Assembly: GCA_964510575.1 (NCBI GenBank)
Contig: CAZECN010000001.1
Coordinates: forward strand, 2,131 to 66,130
Source: an uncultured Bdellovibrionales bacterium
Lineage (GTDB): Bacteria; Bdellovibrionota_C; UBA2361; SZUA-149; CALKYB01
Direction of reading: 5' to 3'
DNA: 64,000 bases
How positions within the stretch are numbered: the stretch's first letter is position 1; every line of letters starts with the position of its first letter. The position numbers and the translations under genes were made by a program. Of this stretch, positions 3,565 to 19,535 are shown piece by piece. The notes under the pieces were generated by a model, which was not told where the DNA came from, did not search any database, and saw only the letters and a program-made list of their open reading frames with translations.

Positions 3565-4158
3565 ATGCATATTCGAAATCGTGGACTAAAGGAGCTTTTG
3601 TTCGCCAGTTTGCCTTTTCTTATTATCGCGACTCCAGCTCATGCCGCGGGCGGAAGCGCTGACCCAGTGATGACTTTTGTCTGGTCTATAATCAACTTTG
3701 CGCTTTTCTTCTTTTTGATGCTTGCTGTGTATAAGAAGAACATTGCCCGCTTAATTAGAGCGAGAAGTGCTAAGGTGGCTGAGCATCTTCAGCGTTCCCA
3801 GAATGCCCTGGCTGAGGCAGAGCAGGAGTATGGAGCTCTTAAAGAGAAACTAAATAACATCGAAGGGGTGAAAAAGGATCTTTTCGATCGTTACAATGAA
3901 GAAGGTCGAAAACAGTCTACTTTGCTGATTGAGTCCGGTAATACTAGTGCAGCTCGTATTCAGGCCGATGCTGAGCGTCAGGTTGGAACCGAGCTTTCTC
4001 AAGAGTCCAAAAAAATTAGAAAGGAAGTTGTAACGACCGCTGTAGGTAAAGCGACCAAGCAGTTGCAAAGTTTAAGCAAGGACGATGATGTCAAGCTTAG
4101 AGCTGATGCACTTCAGAGATTTCTCAATCAAAGCAGTGCGGCTCGACCGTCGGCGTAG
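3565..4158 (+). CDS. atpF: FoF1 ATP synthase subunit b
   Basis: An ATG at 3565 is preceded by the RBS GAGGAAAAGG. TM helix then a coiled-coil b-subunit pattern (AEAEQEYGALKEKL...). The track ORF starting at 3496 (TTG) would overlap the preceding gene, so the later start is preferred. Confidence 0.75.
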   Translation: MHIRNRGLKELLFASLPFLIIATPAHAAGGSADPVMTFVWSIINFALFFFLMLAVYKKNIARLIRARSAKVAEHLQRSQNALAEAEQEYGALKEKLNNIEGVKKDLFDRYNEEGRKQSTLLIESGNTSAARIQADAERQVGTELSQESKKIRKEVVTTAVGKATKQLQSLSKDDDVKLRADALQRFLNQSSAARPSA

Positions 4159-9315: not shown

Positions 9316-9652
9316 CCCAGGCCTATTAGATTTAGGATTTTCTTCATCGCTCTGTAACGTGGGTTTCAGAAATGCTCCATTTCAGCCCCATTCTACTACG
9401 TCTTGCGCCTGCTGGGCGGGTGGTACACCTTCACTCTTCGACCAGATTTAGATATCCGCTTTAGGCTTTAATTCTTCTAAAGTCTTTGCTTTGCCCTACC
9501 TCTCCTTCTGTAAGTGAAGTTGTTGATGGTCGTATGTTGGCGCTGAGGGTATACTTGTGTTGAATAAGTTCTTTCCTAAGAGGCGGTTGAGTAATTCGAT
9601 ATACTCCCCCTAGTGATAGGAGGAGGATCCAGAAGATGGCTAGAAAAGAGCA

Positions 9653-11476
9653 ATGCTAAGACTAGTAGTCATACCAGCCTATTTGGCTATATTTCACTTA
9701 AGTCTTGAATGGCTTTTTTTGGCAACAAAACCCTCATTTCTATCGAGGCTTTCTTACCTTGATCAATTCTTGGTTTATTTTAATTCTCTTGGCTTACCAA
9801 TTATCACTATTGTTTTAGTTTTTACAGTTCTTGTAGCTATCACCAAGGTCTTGTTTAAAGGATTCCCAATAAATTGGAGCAAAATAGTCTGGTGTATTCC
9901 TGCTGCCGCCATATTGGCATCCTTATGGTTTCTTCTTGCTAATACGTTCACTTATAACTTGTTTGGTCAGAGCATATTAGTAGAGCAAGGACGAGGTAGA
10001 CTAGTATACCTGCTTGTATTTGCTTTACTCTACACTTATTCCTTTAGTGTTTTGAATAAATTGATTAGAGAAAGTTTTTGGAAATACTATGAAAGAAAGT
10101 TACTGCTAGTTTTAGTGACTTTAGCCTTAGTATCAGTATGTTCCTGTCTCATAAGTAATCGACATTTAGAGGCTTCTTTAGACGATCTGAAGTTTGACTT
10201 GGATGCTAAAAGCGAACTACCTGATATTATTTTACTCTCTTCAGACGCTTTACTTTCATCTCATATGTCGGTTTATGGTTACGAAAGAGAGACTACACCC
10301 TTTTTAGCCAGTGATGATGACAGTTGGCTGATTTATGAAAATGCATTTTCTAACGCCAATCGCTCAGCAGGCTCAGTGCTTGCAATGCTGACTGGCCGGT
10401 CTCCACTTCACACTAAGATAATAACTTATCCTGATATTCTTCGTGGGCAAGATTCCCTCAGCCATTTTGTTGGACTGATTAGAAGTAAAGGCTATCGAAC
10501 CTTAGACATAAGTATTCGTGATTACGCTGATGCAGTAGATCGAAACATGTGCCTTGGCTTTGATTACGCCACTGGACGTAAATTGGATCAAGGCCTTTAC
10601 TCTATTCTAAGGAACTATCCTTCTTTACTTTGCTCAGATGAATTCTTTTTTCTTTCAAGAGTCTTTAGAAGATTAAACGAGCATTTGAAGCACACGCTTT
10701 ATCTAAAAAAAGTATCACTGTCCTGGCATAGTGTGACTAAAAAAGTTGATTTTTTTGAACAAGATGTAAAAAAGATGGATCGTCTTATGGAGTTTATTGA
10801 AAGCTCTAAAAAGCCGATATTTGCCCATGTGCACCTGTTGGGAACTCATGGACCGATGTATAGCCCTAAAAGCGAAGCCTTTTCAGGTGGACGTGACCAA
10901 AGTGAAGATCGAGAAATAGATTTCTATGATGACGCGATCAGAGACTTTGACCACCATATTGAACGGCTTATTTCGAGTCTGAAAGAAATAGGTAAACTAG
11001 AACAAACCTTAATAGTTATTCACTCTGACCATGATCGACACTTTAGAGTGGGTGGTCGTATACCACTTATGTTTAGATTTCCTAGGAAAGAGTTTATTGG
11101 TCGAAAACATCTTAACGCTCAGCTGTTAGATATCGCCCCTACTATTTTAGACTATCTTGGATCGGCAGAGCTGGACTGGATAGATGGGGAGAGTCTTTTT
11201 AATACTGACCTTGAGCCTGATCGTTTGTTGGTTGGCCTATCAGATATTTACCCATTTAAGCATTACTATTCAGCAGAACCTCCCTTTTTTAATATTGACT
11301 CTATCGAGCTTATCAGATGCGATAGACAGCTCTCCTATTCGGTTGACTCGAAAGAGATTACTGAAAGGCGTATTAAGGGGCATACCAAGCCATGTGAGAG
11401 TAATCCTTGGGATCGACCCGGGCAAGCTATGCGAGACATAGAGCAGCAAATTTCTATTTTTCTAAGCTCTGACTAA
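9653..11476 (+). CDS. Membrane-anchored alkaline-phosphatase-superfamily enzyme (LtaS/EptA/OpgB-like sulfatase-fold phosphotransferase)
   Basis: About 180 aa of N-terminal TM helices, then a sulfatase-fold domain: SAGSVLAMLTGRSP (Ser/Thr-nucleophile variant of the C-x-P-x-R region) and HLLGTHGPMY. The architecture matches LtaS/EptA-type transferases. Confidence 0.7.
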   Translation: MLRLVVIPAYLAIFHLSLEWLFLATKPSFLSRLSYLDQFLVYFNSLGLPIITIVLVFTVLVAITKVLFKGFPINWSKIVWCIPAAAILASLWFLLANTFTYNLFGQSILVEQGRGRLVYLLVFALLYTYSFSVLNKLIRESFWKYYERKLLLVLVTLALVSVCSCLISNRHLEASLDDLKFDLDAKSELPDIILLSSDALLSSHMSVYGYERETTPFLASDDDSWLIYENAFSNANRSAGSVLAMLTGRSPLHTKIITYPDILRGQDSLSHFVGLIRSKGYRTLDISIRDYADAVDRNMCLGFDYATGRKLDQGLYSILRNYPSLLCSDEFFFLSRVFRRLNEHLKHTLYLKKVSLSWHSVTKKVDFFEQDVKKMDRLMEFIESSKKPIFAHVHLLGTHGPMYSPKSEAFSGGRDQSEDREIDFYDDAIRDFDHHIERLISSLKEIGKLEQTLIVIHSDHDRHFRVGGRIPLMFRFPRKEFIGRKHLNAQLLDIAPTILDYLGSAELDWIDGESLFNTDLEPDRLLVGLSDIYPFKHYYSAEPPFFNIDSIELIRCDRQLSYSVDSKEITERRIKGHTKPCESNPWDRPGQAMRDIEQQISIFLSSD

Positions 11477-11589
11477 AGTTCCTTTGGTCTGTTTGGCTTA
11501 ATGAATATACTGAAACCAGTTTAAATTCCGTGTCTGGCAGTGCTACGCACTTTATACCCCTTTACGACAGGTACAGAAAAAGCCAGAAT

Positions 11590-11925
11590 TTAAAGTAGAC
11601 GGGGTATATACTGCGCCTCATTTAAATTTCGGTTTAGCTAGACTAAGCATGGGCGCAGTATAAAGCCGAACTTTTAGTTCTGCCAAAAGACCATAGACTC
11701 AACCTCCAAGTATGCTTTTCAAGGCCTTTAGGCCTTGTCTGATTTTACTATCATTCAGAAAAACATGGGTAGGGTATTTGAACACTCTACTGGAAAAACG
11801 CTAGTCGCGTTTTACAGAGTTTTAGACGCAGTATCTGTCTTATGGCCATGCTAGCGCATGGCCGATATACTCAACCCTGCTAAACGCATAAAGGACCAAA
11901 TTTAAATCAGGTTGAGTATATAAGT
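11590..11925. repeat. Copy A of a roughly 330-bp noncoding repeat element, in an intergenic leader upstream of the 12024 gene
   Basis: Aligns block by block with the reverse complement of 19215-19535 at about 85% identity. Contains TATATACTGCGCC (11605-11617) / GGCGCAGTATAA (11652-11663), the perfect 20-nt palindrome GGCCATGCTAGCGCATGGCC (11844-11863), and TATACTCAACC (11866-11876) / GGTTGAGTATATA (11910-11922). Confidence 0.8.
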
Positions 11926-17001: not shown

Positions 17002-17208
17002 AAAAGAGTTAAGGCAGATTAACTAATAATATATCAACCTAGCTTATATTTCGCTTTTCAGAGGTCTGGTTGAGGGTACAATCAATGGGTCAGCACTGCT
17101 ATTAGATAACTATACTTCGTCAAAAGATGCTGCAAGTCTAAAGGACTTGGCAAGAAAAGGGTTTTTTATTGGAGAAAAGTCACTATATCACTCGTAGCGA
17201 GTTTTTCT

Positions 17209-17781
17209 TTATCCTATTTTATAGTTTAGGCACATTTTTCTACTTTTAAATTTTTTTTGAAGAGAAACTTTAAAACCGTCTTTCTTCAACTCTAGTGTCT
17301 CCTGGTGGTCGGATTGACTATGCTCCCAAACCAAGTGGACAGGGTAGGCTAGTGATATTTCTTTCATAAAACCCTCTTCCCTAAAATTTAGTAAATACCA
17401 CTCCCACTCCAGCCGAGCTAACTCTGGCAGATAGAACAAAGACTTAGCCTCAGGTCTAACTTCAGTCAGCTCTTCTAGGTAGCTTTCAAATCGATCACCG
17501 TATTGATTTAGATCAGGCTCATCTGGGGGAAATTTATGAAAGTAGTCTGCCGCGATTTGTTTGAAGTAATCTTCTCCAACAACTTTGCAGCAGGCGGGAA
17601 AGGTATCTTTTAGCGCTCCATAAAGGTTGGAGCGAACAGTCTGGCGATAGATGCTGATTTGTTTTTGAGGAGAACGCTTTCCTCCACTGGGAAAGAGGTC
17701 TAGCACTCCTGTCTCCTCATTAAGCCTGGGAGAGACAATAGCTCCTTTAATAAGAGCTTGGATTTCAGCCAGTCGCTTCAT
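17209..17781 (-). CDS. DUF2063-family protein (BufC/MbnC-like partner of MNIO enzymes)
   Basis: The N-terminal domain matches the DUF2063 pattern (IQALIKGAI...YRQTVRSNLYGALKDTFPACCKVVGEDYFKQIAADYF). Overlaps the upstream DUF692 gene by 17 nt. Confidence 0.6.
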   Translation of the reverse strand: MKRLAEIQALIKGAIVSPRLNEETGVLDLFPSGGKRSPQKQISIYRQTVRSNLYGALKDTFPACCKVVGEDYFKQIAADYFHKFPPDEPDLNQYGDRFESYLEELTEVRPEAKSLFYLPELARLEWEWYLLNFREEGFMKEISLAYPVHLVWEHSQSDHQETLELKKDGFKVSLQKKFKSRKMCLNYKIG

Positions 17782-18631
17782 GAAGCAGAGGCTGAGGGTT
17801 TAGTATCTGGTCTGCCTTGGAAGCTTCACAAGCGAGCACTGAAAATTCAGGAATATCGTTGTCCCACTCAATTAAAGAAGGAGTATCCCCACAATGTTCA
17901 ATTGCTGCTCTGTATATCTCCCAAACATCGTCTGGAACTTCCCGACTGTGAGTGTCGAGCATATAACCATCTCGCTCTTCTCCACCAGCTAAGTGAATCT
18001 CGCCAACCCTTTCTGCTGGGATGGAGCGAATATAATCCATGGCTTTGTCTCCATGGTTATACTGGCTAACGTAGATATTGTTTACATCTAGCAAAATACC
18101 GCAGTCAGCTTTTTCAGCCACGGCAGAGATAAACTCAGCCTCAGGCATTTGAGACTCTTTAAAAGTTAAGTAACTTGAAACGTTTTCAATCAATAACTTA
18201 CGTCCGAGAAAATCCTGAATTTCAGAGATTCTACCAGCAACGTGATTGATCGTCTCTTCAGTGTAGGGCAGGGGAAGTAGGTCATGAAAGTTGACCCCAT
18301 GGGCAGATGTCCAGCAAAGGTGTTCTGAGACCCATGCGGGTTGGAAGCGGTCAGCTAGAGCCTTTATTTTACCAACATAGTCCCAGTTTATAGGGTCAGT
18401 TGAGCCAACTGACATACCAACGCTGTGCATGGTAATTGGATAATGAGAACGTATTTGTTCAAGGTCAGCTAGAGCTTCACCTTCCGGGCCAAAGTAATTA
18501 TCAGTGAGAACTTCAAACCAGTTTATGTCTGGCTTATGCTCTAAAACGAAATCTAAGTGTTGGGGGCGCAGACCGATACCGGCTCCCGATACCGGCCTGC
18601 TTGATAATTGGTAATGAGTATTATTCTTCAT
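17765..18631 (-). CDS. DUF692 / MNIO (multinuclear non-heme iron oxidative) enzyme, BufB/MbnB-like
   Basis: GAGIGLRPQH... WVSEHLCW... LLPLPYTEE... LLIENVSSY... GCGILLDVNNIYVS... EIHLAGG... LIEWDNDIP. These are the full set of conserved DUF692 blocks. Confidence 0.8.
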   Translation of the reverse strand: MKNNTHYQLSSRPVSGAGIGLRPQHLDFVLEHKPDINWFEVLTDNYFGPEGEALADLEQIRSHYPITMHSVGMSVGSTDPINWDYVGKIKALADRFQPAWVSEHLCWTSAHGVNFHDLLPLPYTEETINHVAGRISEIQDFLGRKLLIENVSSYLTFKESQMPEAEFISAVAEKADCGILLDVNNIYVSQYNHGDKAMDYIRSIPAERVGEIHLAGGEERDGYMLDTHSREVPDDVWEIYRAAIEHCGDTPSLIEWDNDIPEFSVLACEASKADQILNPQPLLHEATG

Positions 18632-18649
18632 TACTAAGGATTGACTAAT

Positions 18650-19075
18650 TTACTTAGTCATATCTCCCATTATTTTGTCAGACATTTTATCGACCATGTC
18701 AGTTGTTTTATCTGCCATTTTGCCGGTCATGGCTTTAGTTTTATCAGTCATGGCAGCAGCTTTGTCGGTCATTTTATCAGCCATGCCTGCAGCAGGTTTT
18801 TCCCCTACAACTTTAGCTCCAACGATCTTGTCGCAAGCGCCTTTAGGAAGATAAAGCCATTCAGTTGGGTCGGAGTCCTTGTCAGCTTTACCAGAGCAGC
18901 TGTGACGGCCATCAGTTGAGCCACAATCGTTTTTTCCAGCCTTAGAGACACCAGCGCATTTTTCCCATGCTGTTGGAGCACCTGGAACACCAGCTTGAGC
19001 TTCACCAGCAAGAGATAAAGTAAGGGCTCCAGCAGCTGCTAGTCCTAGAAGAGTTGAGTCTTTTTTAATAGTCAT
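18650..19075 (-). CDS. DUF2282-family (bufferin-like) RiPP precursor: Sec signal peptide, 4-Cys core, C-terminal Met-rich repeat tail
   Basis: Signal peptide MTIKKDSTLLGLAAAGALTLSLAGEAQA. The core WEKCAGVSKAGKNDCGSTDGRHSCSG...DPTEWLYLPKGACDKIVG matches the DUF2282 consensus. The tail GMADKMTDKAAAMTDKTKAMTGKMADKTTDMVDKMSDKIMGDMTK has 9 Met in 44 aa. The gene lies 19 bp upstream of the MNIO gene. Confidence 0.75.
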   Translation of the reverse strand: MTIKKDSTLLGLAAAGALTLSLAGEAQAGVPGAPTAWEKCAGVSKAGKNDCGSTDGRHSCSGKADKDSDPTEWLYLPKGACDKIVGAKVVGEKPAAGMADKMTDKAAAMTDKTKAMTGKMADKTTDMVDKMSDKIMGDMTK

Positions 19076-19214: not shown

Positions 19215-19535
19215 TTCAGGTGATATACTCAACCTACTTTAAATTTCGTCTTTTAAGGATGTGACCGGGTTGAGTATATTCGCCATGCGTTAGCATGGCC
19301 AAGAGACCAATACTGCGCCTGAAGCTCTCTAAAACGCGACCAGCGTTTTTCTATTAGAGTCTCCAAATACCTCGATTCTCTGGATTAGTAATTAATTTAG
19401 ACAAGACCTAAAGGTCTTGAAAAGCATATTTAGAGGTTGAGTATATGGTTTTTTGGCCTCGCCTGCGCTCGGCTCTATACTGCGCCTATCCTCAATCTAT
19501 CAAAACCTAAATTTCAATGAGGCGCAGTATCTTTG
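19215..19535. repeat. Copy B (inverted) of the roughly 330-bp noncoding repeat element, upstream of the bufferin-like operon and downstream of pstB
   Basis: Reverse complement of copy A. Motifs: GATATACTCAACC 19222-19234, GGGTTGAGTATAT 19267-19279, palindrome 19282-19300, ATACTGCGCC 19309-19319, GGTTGAGTATATGG 19435-19448, TATACTGCGCC 19486-19496, GGCGCAGTATC 19521-19531. Confidence 0.8.

Follow-up and report, generated by a model that had tools for sequence, protein, structure and literature searches.

Classical repetitive extragenic palindromic (REP) sites, which occupy intergenic positions within operons or mark their ends and can influence transcripts, and the attC sites of integrons, whose core arms follow the consensus R'' (RYYYAAC) and R' (GTTRRRY), are among the described systems closest to the repeat element analysed here. 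A further relative in layout is the Correia repeat enclosed element (CREE) of Neisseria, a miniature inverted-repeat transposable element (MITE), whose inverted-repeat ends open with TATA and then carry a sub-terminal AAATTTAAA-type A/T palindrome, with tatagtggattaaatttaaatcaggacaa as a variant, and which supplies promoters and rewires regulation (PMC5039591). The element under study recurs between the atp and pst operons of an uncultured Bdellovibrionales bacterium, in a stretch of 64,000 nt from contig CAZECN010000001.1 (hereafter the window), where a sequence-only reading had taken an inverted motif and its degenerate copies as the mark of a common regulon. We instead favour, with a probability of about 0.62, the reading that the motif is an arm of a MITE- or REP/BIME-like structured dispersed repeat (BIME, bacterial interspersed mosaic element) and not a free-standing operator, its degenerate copies being relics. 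We prefer this reading because the motif lies in ~316-bp inverted repeats that fold strongly and show covariation, because the unit occurs at unrelated loci in a related genome and in one filled/empty pair, and because the orthologous promoters examined are free of it.

Anatomy of the repeat unit

The motif strings TATACTCAACC and GGTTGAGTATA are the two stem arms of a 55-nt foldback module, in which complementary arms of 11-13 nt (TATACT+NNN+CC and GG+NNN+AGTATA, with 3-5 variable arm bases) close a loop of 33-34 nt. The loop is conserved in its arm-proximal part, a AAGCCGAAATTTAAAGTA-like stretch. The module is directly preceded by an 8-bp GC hairpin (GGCCATGC-TAGC-GCATGGCC), together with a TGTCTTNT spacer and a third arm that belongs to the other type; module, hairpin and third arm make up a structured unit of ~103 nt, which is found singly, in tandem or in mosaic pile-ups with alternating orientation. 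The arms fall into types A (GCGCC/GGCGC), B (CAACC/GGTTG) and C (CCC/GGG), and the differences between these types are compensatory.

Both exact TATACTCAACC-N33-GGTTGAGTATA elements of the window (11866-11920 and 19224-19278) form the inner ends of a ~316-bp inverted repeat, the two composites of which (11603-11924 and 19220-19533) are 82-86% identical in their ungapped arms and ~76% identical over their gapped whole length. According to Pfam assignments, the surrounding gene order is atp operon, LtaS-like-1, left repeat, GT87, a 408-aa unknown, LtaS-like-2 (-), DUF2063/MbnB/BufA1 (-), right repeat and pstBACS (-). The left composite thus stands between LtaS-like-1, a sulfatase-family gene starting at 9653 (+), and GT87 (start 12024, +), the right one between pstB and bufA1 (DUF2282, start 19075, -), and each is oriented towards the operon downstream of it, GT87 on the left and bufA1 on the right. 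In the left pile-up, C(+) and A(-) are followed by a central segment containing two small hairpins and then by B(+); the right one runs B(-), centre, A(+). The outer ends, TATATACTGCGCCTCATTTAAATTT and AAATTTAAATCAGGTTGAGTATATA, are inverted; single units measure 103-139 nt and composites 316 nt, and internal open reading frames (ORFs) reach at most 39 aa. Unit and composites alike are therefore small, non-coding and bounded by terminal inverted repeats, as MITEs are.

A covariance model of the unit, trained on five intact copies, was run across the whole window with filters off. Six units were found, all of them at 11.5-19.5 kb (Table 1), and nothing else scored at E<=1 except reverse reads of two B modules. 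Outside the island, the density of units was 0 in about 66 kb, and ten further kb of the source contig held no unit. Five exact copies of the 11-mer TATACTCAACC and a sixth that differs at one base lie in the window, always at 11.7-11.9 or 19.2-19.4 kb, the chance expectation for the window being ~0.9 at up to one mismatch. At two mismatches, arm-like 11-mers match near chance level outside the repeats over the whole window; they are enriched in exactly four 5' regions of the island, with almost none in the other 5.8 kb of intergenic DNA.

Table 1 Repeat units, their parts and arm-like sites in the window, in order of position.
Feature	Position	Strand	Details
Possible relic module	9550..9595	+	TATACT(TGTGT)-N23-GGTTGAGTAAT
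Solitary arm-like half-site	9600..9610	+	TATACTCCCCC; back-to-back with the preceding right arm; no downstream partner arm
Partial module D	11504..11531	+	Arm TATACTGAAACC and TTTAAATT loop motif; nhmmer E=0.09
Unit C	11521..11612	+	Arms TATACCCC/GGGGTATA; degenerate hairpin; covariance model 28.6 bits, E=7e-5
Unit A, left composite	11603..11707	-	Covariance model 39.9 bits, E=1.2e-7; degenerate hairpin
Unit A module, left	11607-11662	-	TATACTGCGCC-N34-GGCGCAGTATA; third arm TAGACTCAACC at 11694-11704
Central segment, left composite	11708..11821	.	Two small hairpins
Hairpin with T-rich tail, left centre	11720-11737		CAAGGCC-TTTA-GGCCTTG; terminator-like site
Hairpin, left centre	11795-11813		AAAACGC-TAGTC-GCGTTTT
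Intact unit B, left	11822..11924	+	118 bits, model training copy; z=-5.6; ends 99 nt 5' of the GT87 start
Parts of unit B, left	11825-11835; 11844-11863; 11866-11920		Third arm GACGCAGTATC; hairpin GGCCATGC-TAGC-GCATGGCC; module TATACTCAACC-N33-GGTTGAGTATA
Decayed unit	17028..17124	-	29.6 bits, E=4e-5; 27 nt 5' of the LtaS-like-2 start
Intact unit B, right	19220..19322	-	113 bits, model training copy; z=-4.7; ends 144 nt 5' of the bufA1 start
Central segment, right composite	19323..19431	.	Homologous to 11708-11821
Unit A, right composite	19432..19533	+	37.4 bits, E=4.9e-7; 32 nt past the stop-codon end of pstB (19566)

Intact units folded far better than their shuffles, with z values of -5.6 and -4.7 as RNA and -6.4 as DNA, and a whole composite reached -5.6. 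In an alignment of 11 units from the window and a related metagenome-assembled genome (MAG), 11 of the 20 stem pairs were changed on both sides and 93% of cells paired, values that 0/500 shuffles reached and to which no slid structure came close; these counts lean towards structure because the alignment was fitted to the model. A comparison of the two window composites with each other showed that arm and hairpin positions are 94% identical, as against 70% for the remainder (Fisher P=2e-6), and in the first hairpin of the centre a G:C pair has become A:T in the right copy through compensatory change.

Every intact unit also contains TGGCCA-17-TATACT, a -35/-10-like pair directed towards the downstream gene. 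Promoter-like matches in the region number 24, with 21.2 expected from shuffles and hence no excess, and the pair is unusable as promoter evidence because such matches are no commoner here than in shuffled DNA. At the gathering score, Rfam gave no match in the window and 12 further loci except tRNAs outside the window, which itself contains neither tRNA nor tmRNA; a permissive Rfam search of the element returned nothing relevant, the best sub-threshold match standing at E=6.6, and a literature string search with the arm sequences retrieved unrelated primers only. A 20-codon ORF is common to both composites, at 11787-11849 (-) and 19295-19357 (+), with 14/20 residues identical (MAIRQILRLKLCKTRLAFFQ, MAKRPILRLKLSKTRPAFFY); this likeness is probably a mere consequence of similar DNA, with no sign of coding. 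Separately, a Logan contig from another run (L018 1-32) stops inside the right unit B, ~145 bp 5' of bufA1; assemblies often end at repeats.

Copies in relatives and likeness to known systems

Copies in a relative came to light when genome contigs were scanned once for the exact module, both arms included. The MAG CALIEE01, at ~83% nucleotide identity, has the hairpin-plus-module unit at three other loci, one of them a full 316-bp composite. Its units sit by unrelated genes, namely 5' of a Wzy_C-like gene, between the start of an MFS gene and the end of a histidine-kinase gene, and at trpC/unknown, and the single units lie 10-50 nt 5' of gene starts. Locus L002 combines A(-) and B(+) with a further reversed unit, and the arm type of the partial module D also adjoins the composite there. 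One CALIEE01 contig (L003) is collinear with the window at 45.9-50.0 kb at ~83% identity and carries, at 3912-4050, a 139-nt element composed of two modules, one A-type and one B, plus the hairpin; it is located 10 nt 5' of the start codon (ATG) for an unknown secreted protein. The matching position of the window, 48949/48950, is an empty site, in which TCTAG runs uninterrupted into AAGGTCAAATCATG. With six window units in one island, three CALIEE01 loci and this filled/empty pair, the element shows both the dispersed copies and the presence/absence between relatives that are expected of a MITE. A scan of viral contigs for the module gave two matches, both unrelated.

The orthologous promoters examined in other relatives were free of the unit. 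In relatives whose atpC is 82% and 96% identical (L141/L144, L142), GT87, at only 45-57% protein identity, is the gene next to atpC, both the LtaS-like gene and the unit being absent, and in a relative whose atpD is 90% identical (L149) another gene follows atpC. Relatives with atp genes 96%, 90% and 82% identical thus diverge right after atpC, and the CALIEE01 atp contig stops inside that gene. The sole close orthologue of the gene at 9653, which is 55% identical (L139/L140), lies in a different gene context, behind genes for ATP-citrate lyase, and neither a unit nor an arm cluster precedes it. The best named atpD matches (80-85%) belong to Bdellovibrionota, Oligoflexia and 'Deltaproteobacteria' MAGs.

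Compared with the Correia elements, the repeat is likewise small (both are about 100-155 bp), non-coding and intergenic, often placed just 5' of genes and endowed with stable predicted hairpins, and its ends in the window also consist of TATA and a AAATTTAAA-type tract, here CCAAATTTAAATCAGGTTGAGTATATA. However, the exact 14-nt match is confined to one copy of the window family, the others having AAATTTAAAGTAGG or GAATATAAACTAGG; the arms are unrelated beyond TATA and the A/T tract, the second arm is internal, 33 nt from the end, and there is a separate GC hairpin. Moreover, the copy number is seemingly far lower, the one filled/empty pair shows no clear TA duplication and the lineage is probably Bdellovibrionota-like. 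The 26-bp Correia repeat (TATAGTGGATTAA...) does not appear, the arms here being TATACTCAACC and TATACTGCGCC, and the host is not Neisseria. We accordingly claim a resemblance of layout, not membership.

The likeness to REP sites, BIMEs and REPINs (REP doublets forming hairpins) is of another kind. The units are short extragenic palindromes kept as structure through compensating stem changes; the window pile-ups and L002 form mosaic clusters of alternating orientation with other short motifs between them, as BIMEs do; and the units share a long persistence, the hairpin being kept while the flanks drift. Unlike REP/BIME, in which the repeats usually flank a REP-associated tyrosine transposase (RAYT) gene, they come with no such gene among the scanned island genes (Pfam) or the Pfam labels of the flanking loci, their conserved end is TATAC with no GTAG-type 5' tetranucleotide, a loop of 33 nt takes the place of the tight hairpin, and the copies seen in the partial genomes covered amount to a handful, REP/BIME copies typically numbering tens to hundreds per genome. 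As for integron attC sites, the B arms, ACTCAAC ... GTTGAGT, fit R''/R', and 55 nt is near the lower range of attC lengths. This candidate was rejected: the A and C arms are off consensus, the loop is not self-complementary and forms no L''/L' stem, neither arrays nor an integrase nor attI were found, and the copies are not co-oriented behind promoterless cassettes.

Degenerate sites upstream of the LtaS-like genes

The intergenic stretch 17002-17208, upstream of LtaS-like-2 (start 17001, minus strand), holds a real, decayed repeat unit, clearly more than chance would provide. Aligned to the full unit, its minus strand scored 39 by Smith-Waterman, where shuffles gave 18.1±2.4 (0/200), and nhmmer recovered the unit at E=2.6e-5. 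The third, left and right arms of this unit are exactly the three strings that had been flagged at 17.0-17.1 kb from sequence alone, TATATCAACCTAGC at 17030-17043, GGTTGAGGGTACA at 17068-17080 and TATACTTCG at 17111-17119, eroded and still recognisable. The hairpin and three arm pairs have been lost, and folding is at shuffle level (z=-0.4).

Upstream of LtaS-like-1, the signal is weaker. The strings quoted by the sequence-only reading are all present, GGTTGAGTAATTCGATATACTCC at 9585-9607 and GGGTATACTTGTG at 9547-9559, the latter one base away from where it had been placed, and the description of the motifs as inverted half-sites holds. The back-to-back arms at 9585-9610 resemble true junctions between neighbouring modules, e.g. 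11599-11617. In the possible relic module of Table 1, the right arm retains 9/11 bases, the left arm has only TATACT left and the loop falls 10 nt short of its length in intact modules. We regard the site at 9550-9610 as a probable fragmentary relic of the repeat element. That its half-sites merely resemble the arms by chance, TATACT being a generic -10-like hexamer, is somewhat unlikely, although several results point that way: nhmmer reported only E=41 and 57 at 9316-9652, the covariance model with filters off found nothing there at E<=10, and alignments of 9480-9660 to every known copy, the L002 junctions included, all stayed at shuffle level. Furthermore, the left arm TATACTTGTGT does not complement its right counterpart, no loop motif is left, the predicted fold does not surpass that of shuffles (z=-0.8) and TATACT occurs 38 times in the window. 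Against chance, two 9/11 arm matches lie 4 nt apart in these 337 bp, where local dinucleotide shuffles lead one to expect 0.085 (P=0.0037); GGTTGAGTA at 9585 is the sole exact copy outside the composites, at 0.34 expected per window; and the back-to-back arrangement mirrors real module junctions. The pattern TATACT-N{15,45}-GGTTGAGTA was met in 0/100 shuffles, a figure to be read with the fact that the pattern was framed after the site was seen.

The expectation that the motif family would mark the 5' regions of four transcription units of the island consequently held robustly for three of them and weakly for the gene at 9653, and an excess over chance was evident at 17002-17208 (0/200 shuffles, covariance model E=4e-5) and weak at 9316-9652 (P=0.0037, no profile or covariance match). 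The copies before the LtaS-like genes are not conserved as sites, because arm complementarity and predicted structure have been lost in both (z=-0.4 and -0.8, versus -4.7 and -5.6 in intact units).

Competing explanations and the biology of the island

If the element is a dispersed repeat of the MITE or REP/BIME type, the unit would be repeated, non-autonomous DNA that spreads or once spread. An enzyme whose gene lies elsewhere would recognise its arms and hairpin, either as a fold or as an inverted repeat. Intergenic copies freed from constraint would then decay, leaving the degenerate motifs 5' of the LtaS-like genes, and an influence on adjacent genes, if any, would be incidental or the outcome of later co-option, for which the TGGCCA-17-TATACT pair, the terminator-like centre hairpins and stable stem-loops in read-through transcripts are candidate effectors. 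Several observations weigh against this reading. Pfam searches revealed no transposase, RAYT or recombinase in 74 kb of the genome or in three CALIEE01 loci of 5-8 kb; the copy number appears low, with 2 exact modules in 64 kb and 3 in the CALIEE01 MAG; and all units seen in the genome lie in one 8-kb island, at P ~0.001-0.006 for 3-4 random intergenic insertions. In addition, the arms are constant while the remainder has diverged by ~30%, which a host-level function fits at least as well as a selfish element does. The perfect arms of the CALIEE01 copies are partly an ascertainment effect, because these copies were found by exact match to both arms, and the boundary of the L003 filled/empty pair is ambiguous by 1 nt, with no clear target-site duplication, a TA duplication fitting only if substitutions are assumed.

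The main rival to the dispersed-repeat reading, which we consider unlikely, is that of a host cis-regulatory cassette, either a terminator with an outward promoter or a structured 5' leader RNA, kept by selection on the host and duplicated before the GT87 and bufferin operons for like expression, the copies before the LtaS-like genes being dead duplicates. The much stronger conservation of arms and hairpin than of the remainder between paralogous composites would suit such a cassette, as would the confinement of every unit seen in the genome to the island, the position of CALIEE01 single units 10-50 nt 5' of gene starts and the presence of TGGCCA-17-TATACT in all intact units; the last of these loses force with the lack of any excess of promoter-like matches, and no Rfam family matches the element. 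Both composites also share one polarity, from upstream gene end through reversed A, terminator-like hairpins and B to downstream gene start, but this says little because the composite is near-symmetric, and in L002 a convergent gene presents its 3' end to the B side. The genes downstream of the CALIEE01 units are functionally unrelated, the GT87 orthologues of relatives do without a unit, and the promoter and RNA-stem versions exclude each other because a transcript begun after TATACT would omit the left arm.

The regulon proposed by the sequence-only reading would make the TATACTCAACC/GGTTGAGTA half-sites the operators of one regulator acting on four transcription units, for example under copper, phosphate or envelope stress, which on the sequences compared here appears improbable. 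In being an inverted repeat found time and again 5' of adjacent transcription units, the motif does look like an operator; arm-like 11-mers are concentrated in precisely those four 5' regions, and no other part of the unit is as well conserved as the arms. Yet the half-sites stand 33 nt apart with the DNA between and around them conserved as well, so that what the loci have in common is an element of 100-316 bp and no mere site; from 103 to 316 bp, the similarity takes in loop, hairpin and central segment, which a short binding site would not. Arm variants co-vary as stems, a behaviour not predicted by a single protein specificity, and the sites upstream of the LtaS-like genes are eroded. Upstream conservation at orthologues is absent for GT87 in L141/L144 and L142 and for the LtaS-like gene in L139/L140, and in CALIEE01 the element precedes unrelated genes, at one of which the window has the empty site. 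No dedicated regulator gene was seen in the island either, its sole DNA-binding label being the Pfam description of DUF2063, beside MbnB in the buf operon. A common, structured repeat with decayed copies, unrelated neighbours and unit-free orthologues therefore leaves the regulon inference unsupported. Pho box, CsoR-type operator and sigma-54 readings of the unit were considered and rejected, since each either failed to fit the consensus or fitted in a way not conserved among the copies. Least probable of all is that the inverted 316-bp composites serve as a recombination substrate and delimit a segment of 7.9 kb (11.6-19.5 kb) able to invert or transpose. Although inverted repeats do flank the GT87-to-bufferin block exactly, and the region 3' of atpC varies among close relatives, no recombinase or transposase gene lies within or beside the segment, the repeats are merely ~76-82% identical, a lone composite occurs at another locus in CALIEE01, and inversion would leave the facing of genes and flanks without obvious change.

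The stretch at 9.3-19.5 kb, with the atp operon on one side and the pst operon on the other, can be viewed as a variable envelope/glycan island, because the DNA directly 3' of atpC varies among close relatives while the atp operon itself is 76-96% conserved. Its bufferin-type operon (17209-19075, -), of the class of ribosomally synthesized and post-translationally modified peptides, comprises BufA1/DUF2282, MbnB/DUF692 and DUF2063/HvfC. The C-terminal tail of the BufA1 precursor is Met- and Lys/Asp-rich and repeated (MADKMTDK...MTGKMADK...MVDKMSDK), and is encoded by three 25-nt direct repeats at 18674-18785. At the other end of the island, a strong Shine-Dalgarno sequence (GGAGGAGGA, within 9620-9659, +) stands ahead of a 7-codon upstream ORF (ATG 9636, MARKEQC, stop 9657-9659) that overlaps the ATG (9653) of LtaS-like-1, the own ribosome-binding site of which is weak; translational coupling or a leader peptide for LtaS-like-1 is possible. 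In L139/L140, a BBAY59 relative, the LtaS-like orthologue lies between ATP-citrate lyase genes and a sigma-factor/YscJ/FliN/FHIPEP cluster (type III secretion or flagellar export), which hints at the lifestyle of the lineage.

Metagenome and genome scans also revealed a widespread element of ~105 nt that has the same layout as the window unit: TATACT[G/C]AACCAA, a loop of ~38 nt with conserved blocks, TTGGTT[C/G]AGTATA, 3 nt, an 8-bp hairpin and (A/G)GGATA. In its 8-bp hairpin, 5/8 pairs are changed on both sides. At least nine near-identical copies reside in one DPANN archaeal MAG (Micrarchaeota MAG085: L001, L004, L005, L008, L009, L011, L013, L015), which looks like recent proliferation, and others are found on many unrelated metagenome contigs (L025, L037, L063, L064, L096, L108, L111, L118, L125, L127). 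The ~105-nt element has no Rfam match. The profile of the window unit matches these elements only weakly (E=0.007-0.07), so that homology with the window family is no more than suggested. Rather speculatively, and with a low probability in our estimate, the unit might be a selectively maintained, portable structured cassette that punctuates or drives operons in variable envelope islands, or the bacterial branch of a much wider, undescribed superfamily with TATAC termini, a long-range stem and an adjacent hairpin, which also proliferates in a DPANN archaeal MAG, is present on many metagenome contigs and may be mobilised by a structure-recognising enzyme, or both.

Collectively, the element is probably a previously undescribed repeat of a MITE- or REP/BIME-like type. 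It marks a hypervariable envelope/glycan and bufferin island that starts right after the atp operon, and it is placed where the GT87 and bufferin transcripts could be terminated, started or stabilised. If bacteria and DPANN archaea do share one superfamily, it would amount to a type of structured repeat that is both new and widespread and still lacks a known mobilising enzyme. Our findings further indicate that an inverted motif recurring in adjacent promoters can be the footprint of a repeat element and not of a regulon, and motif-based regulon prediction would accordingly mislead in this island.

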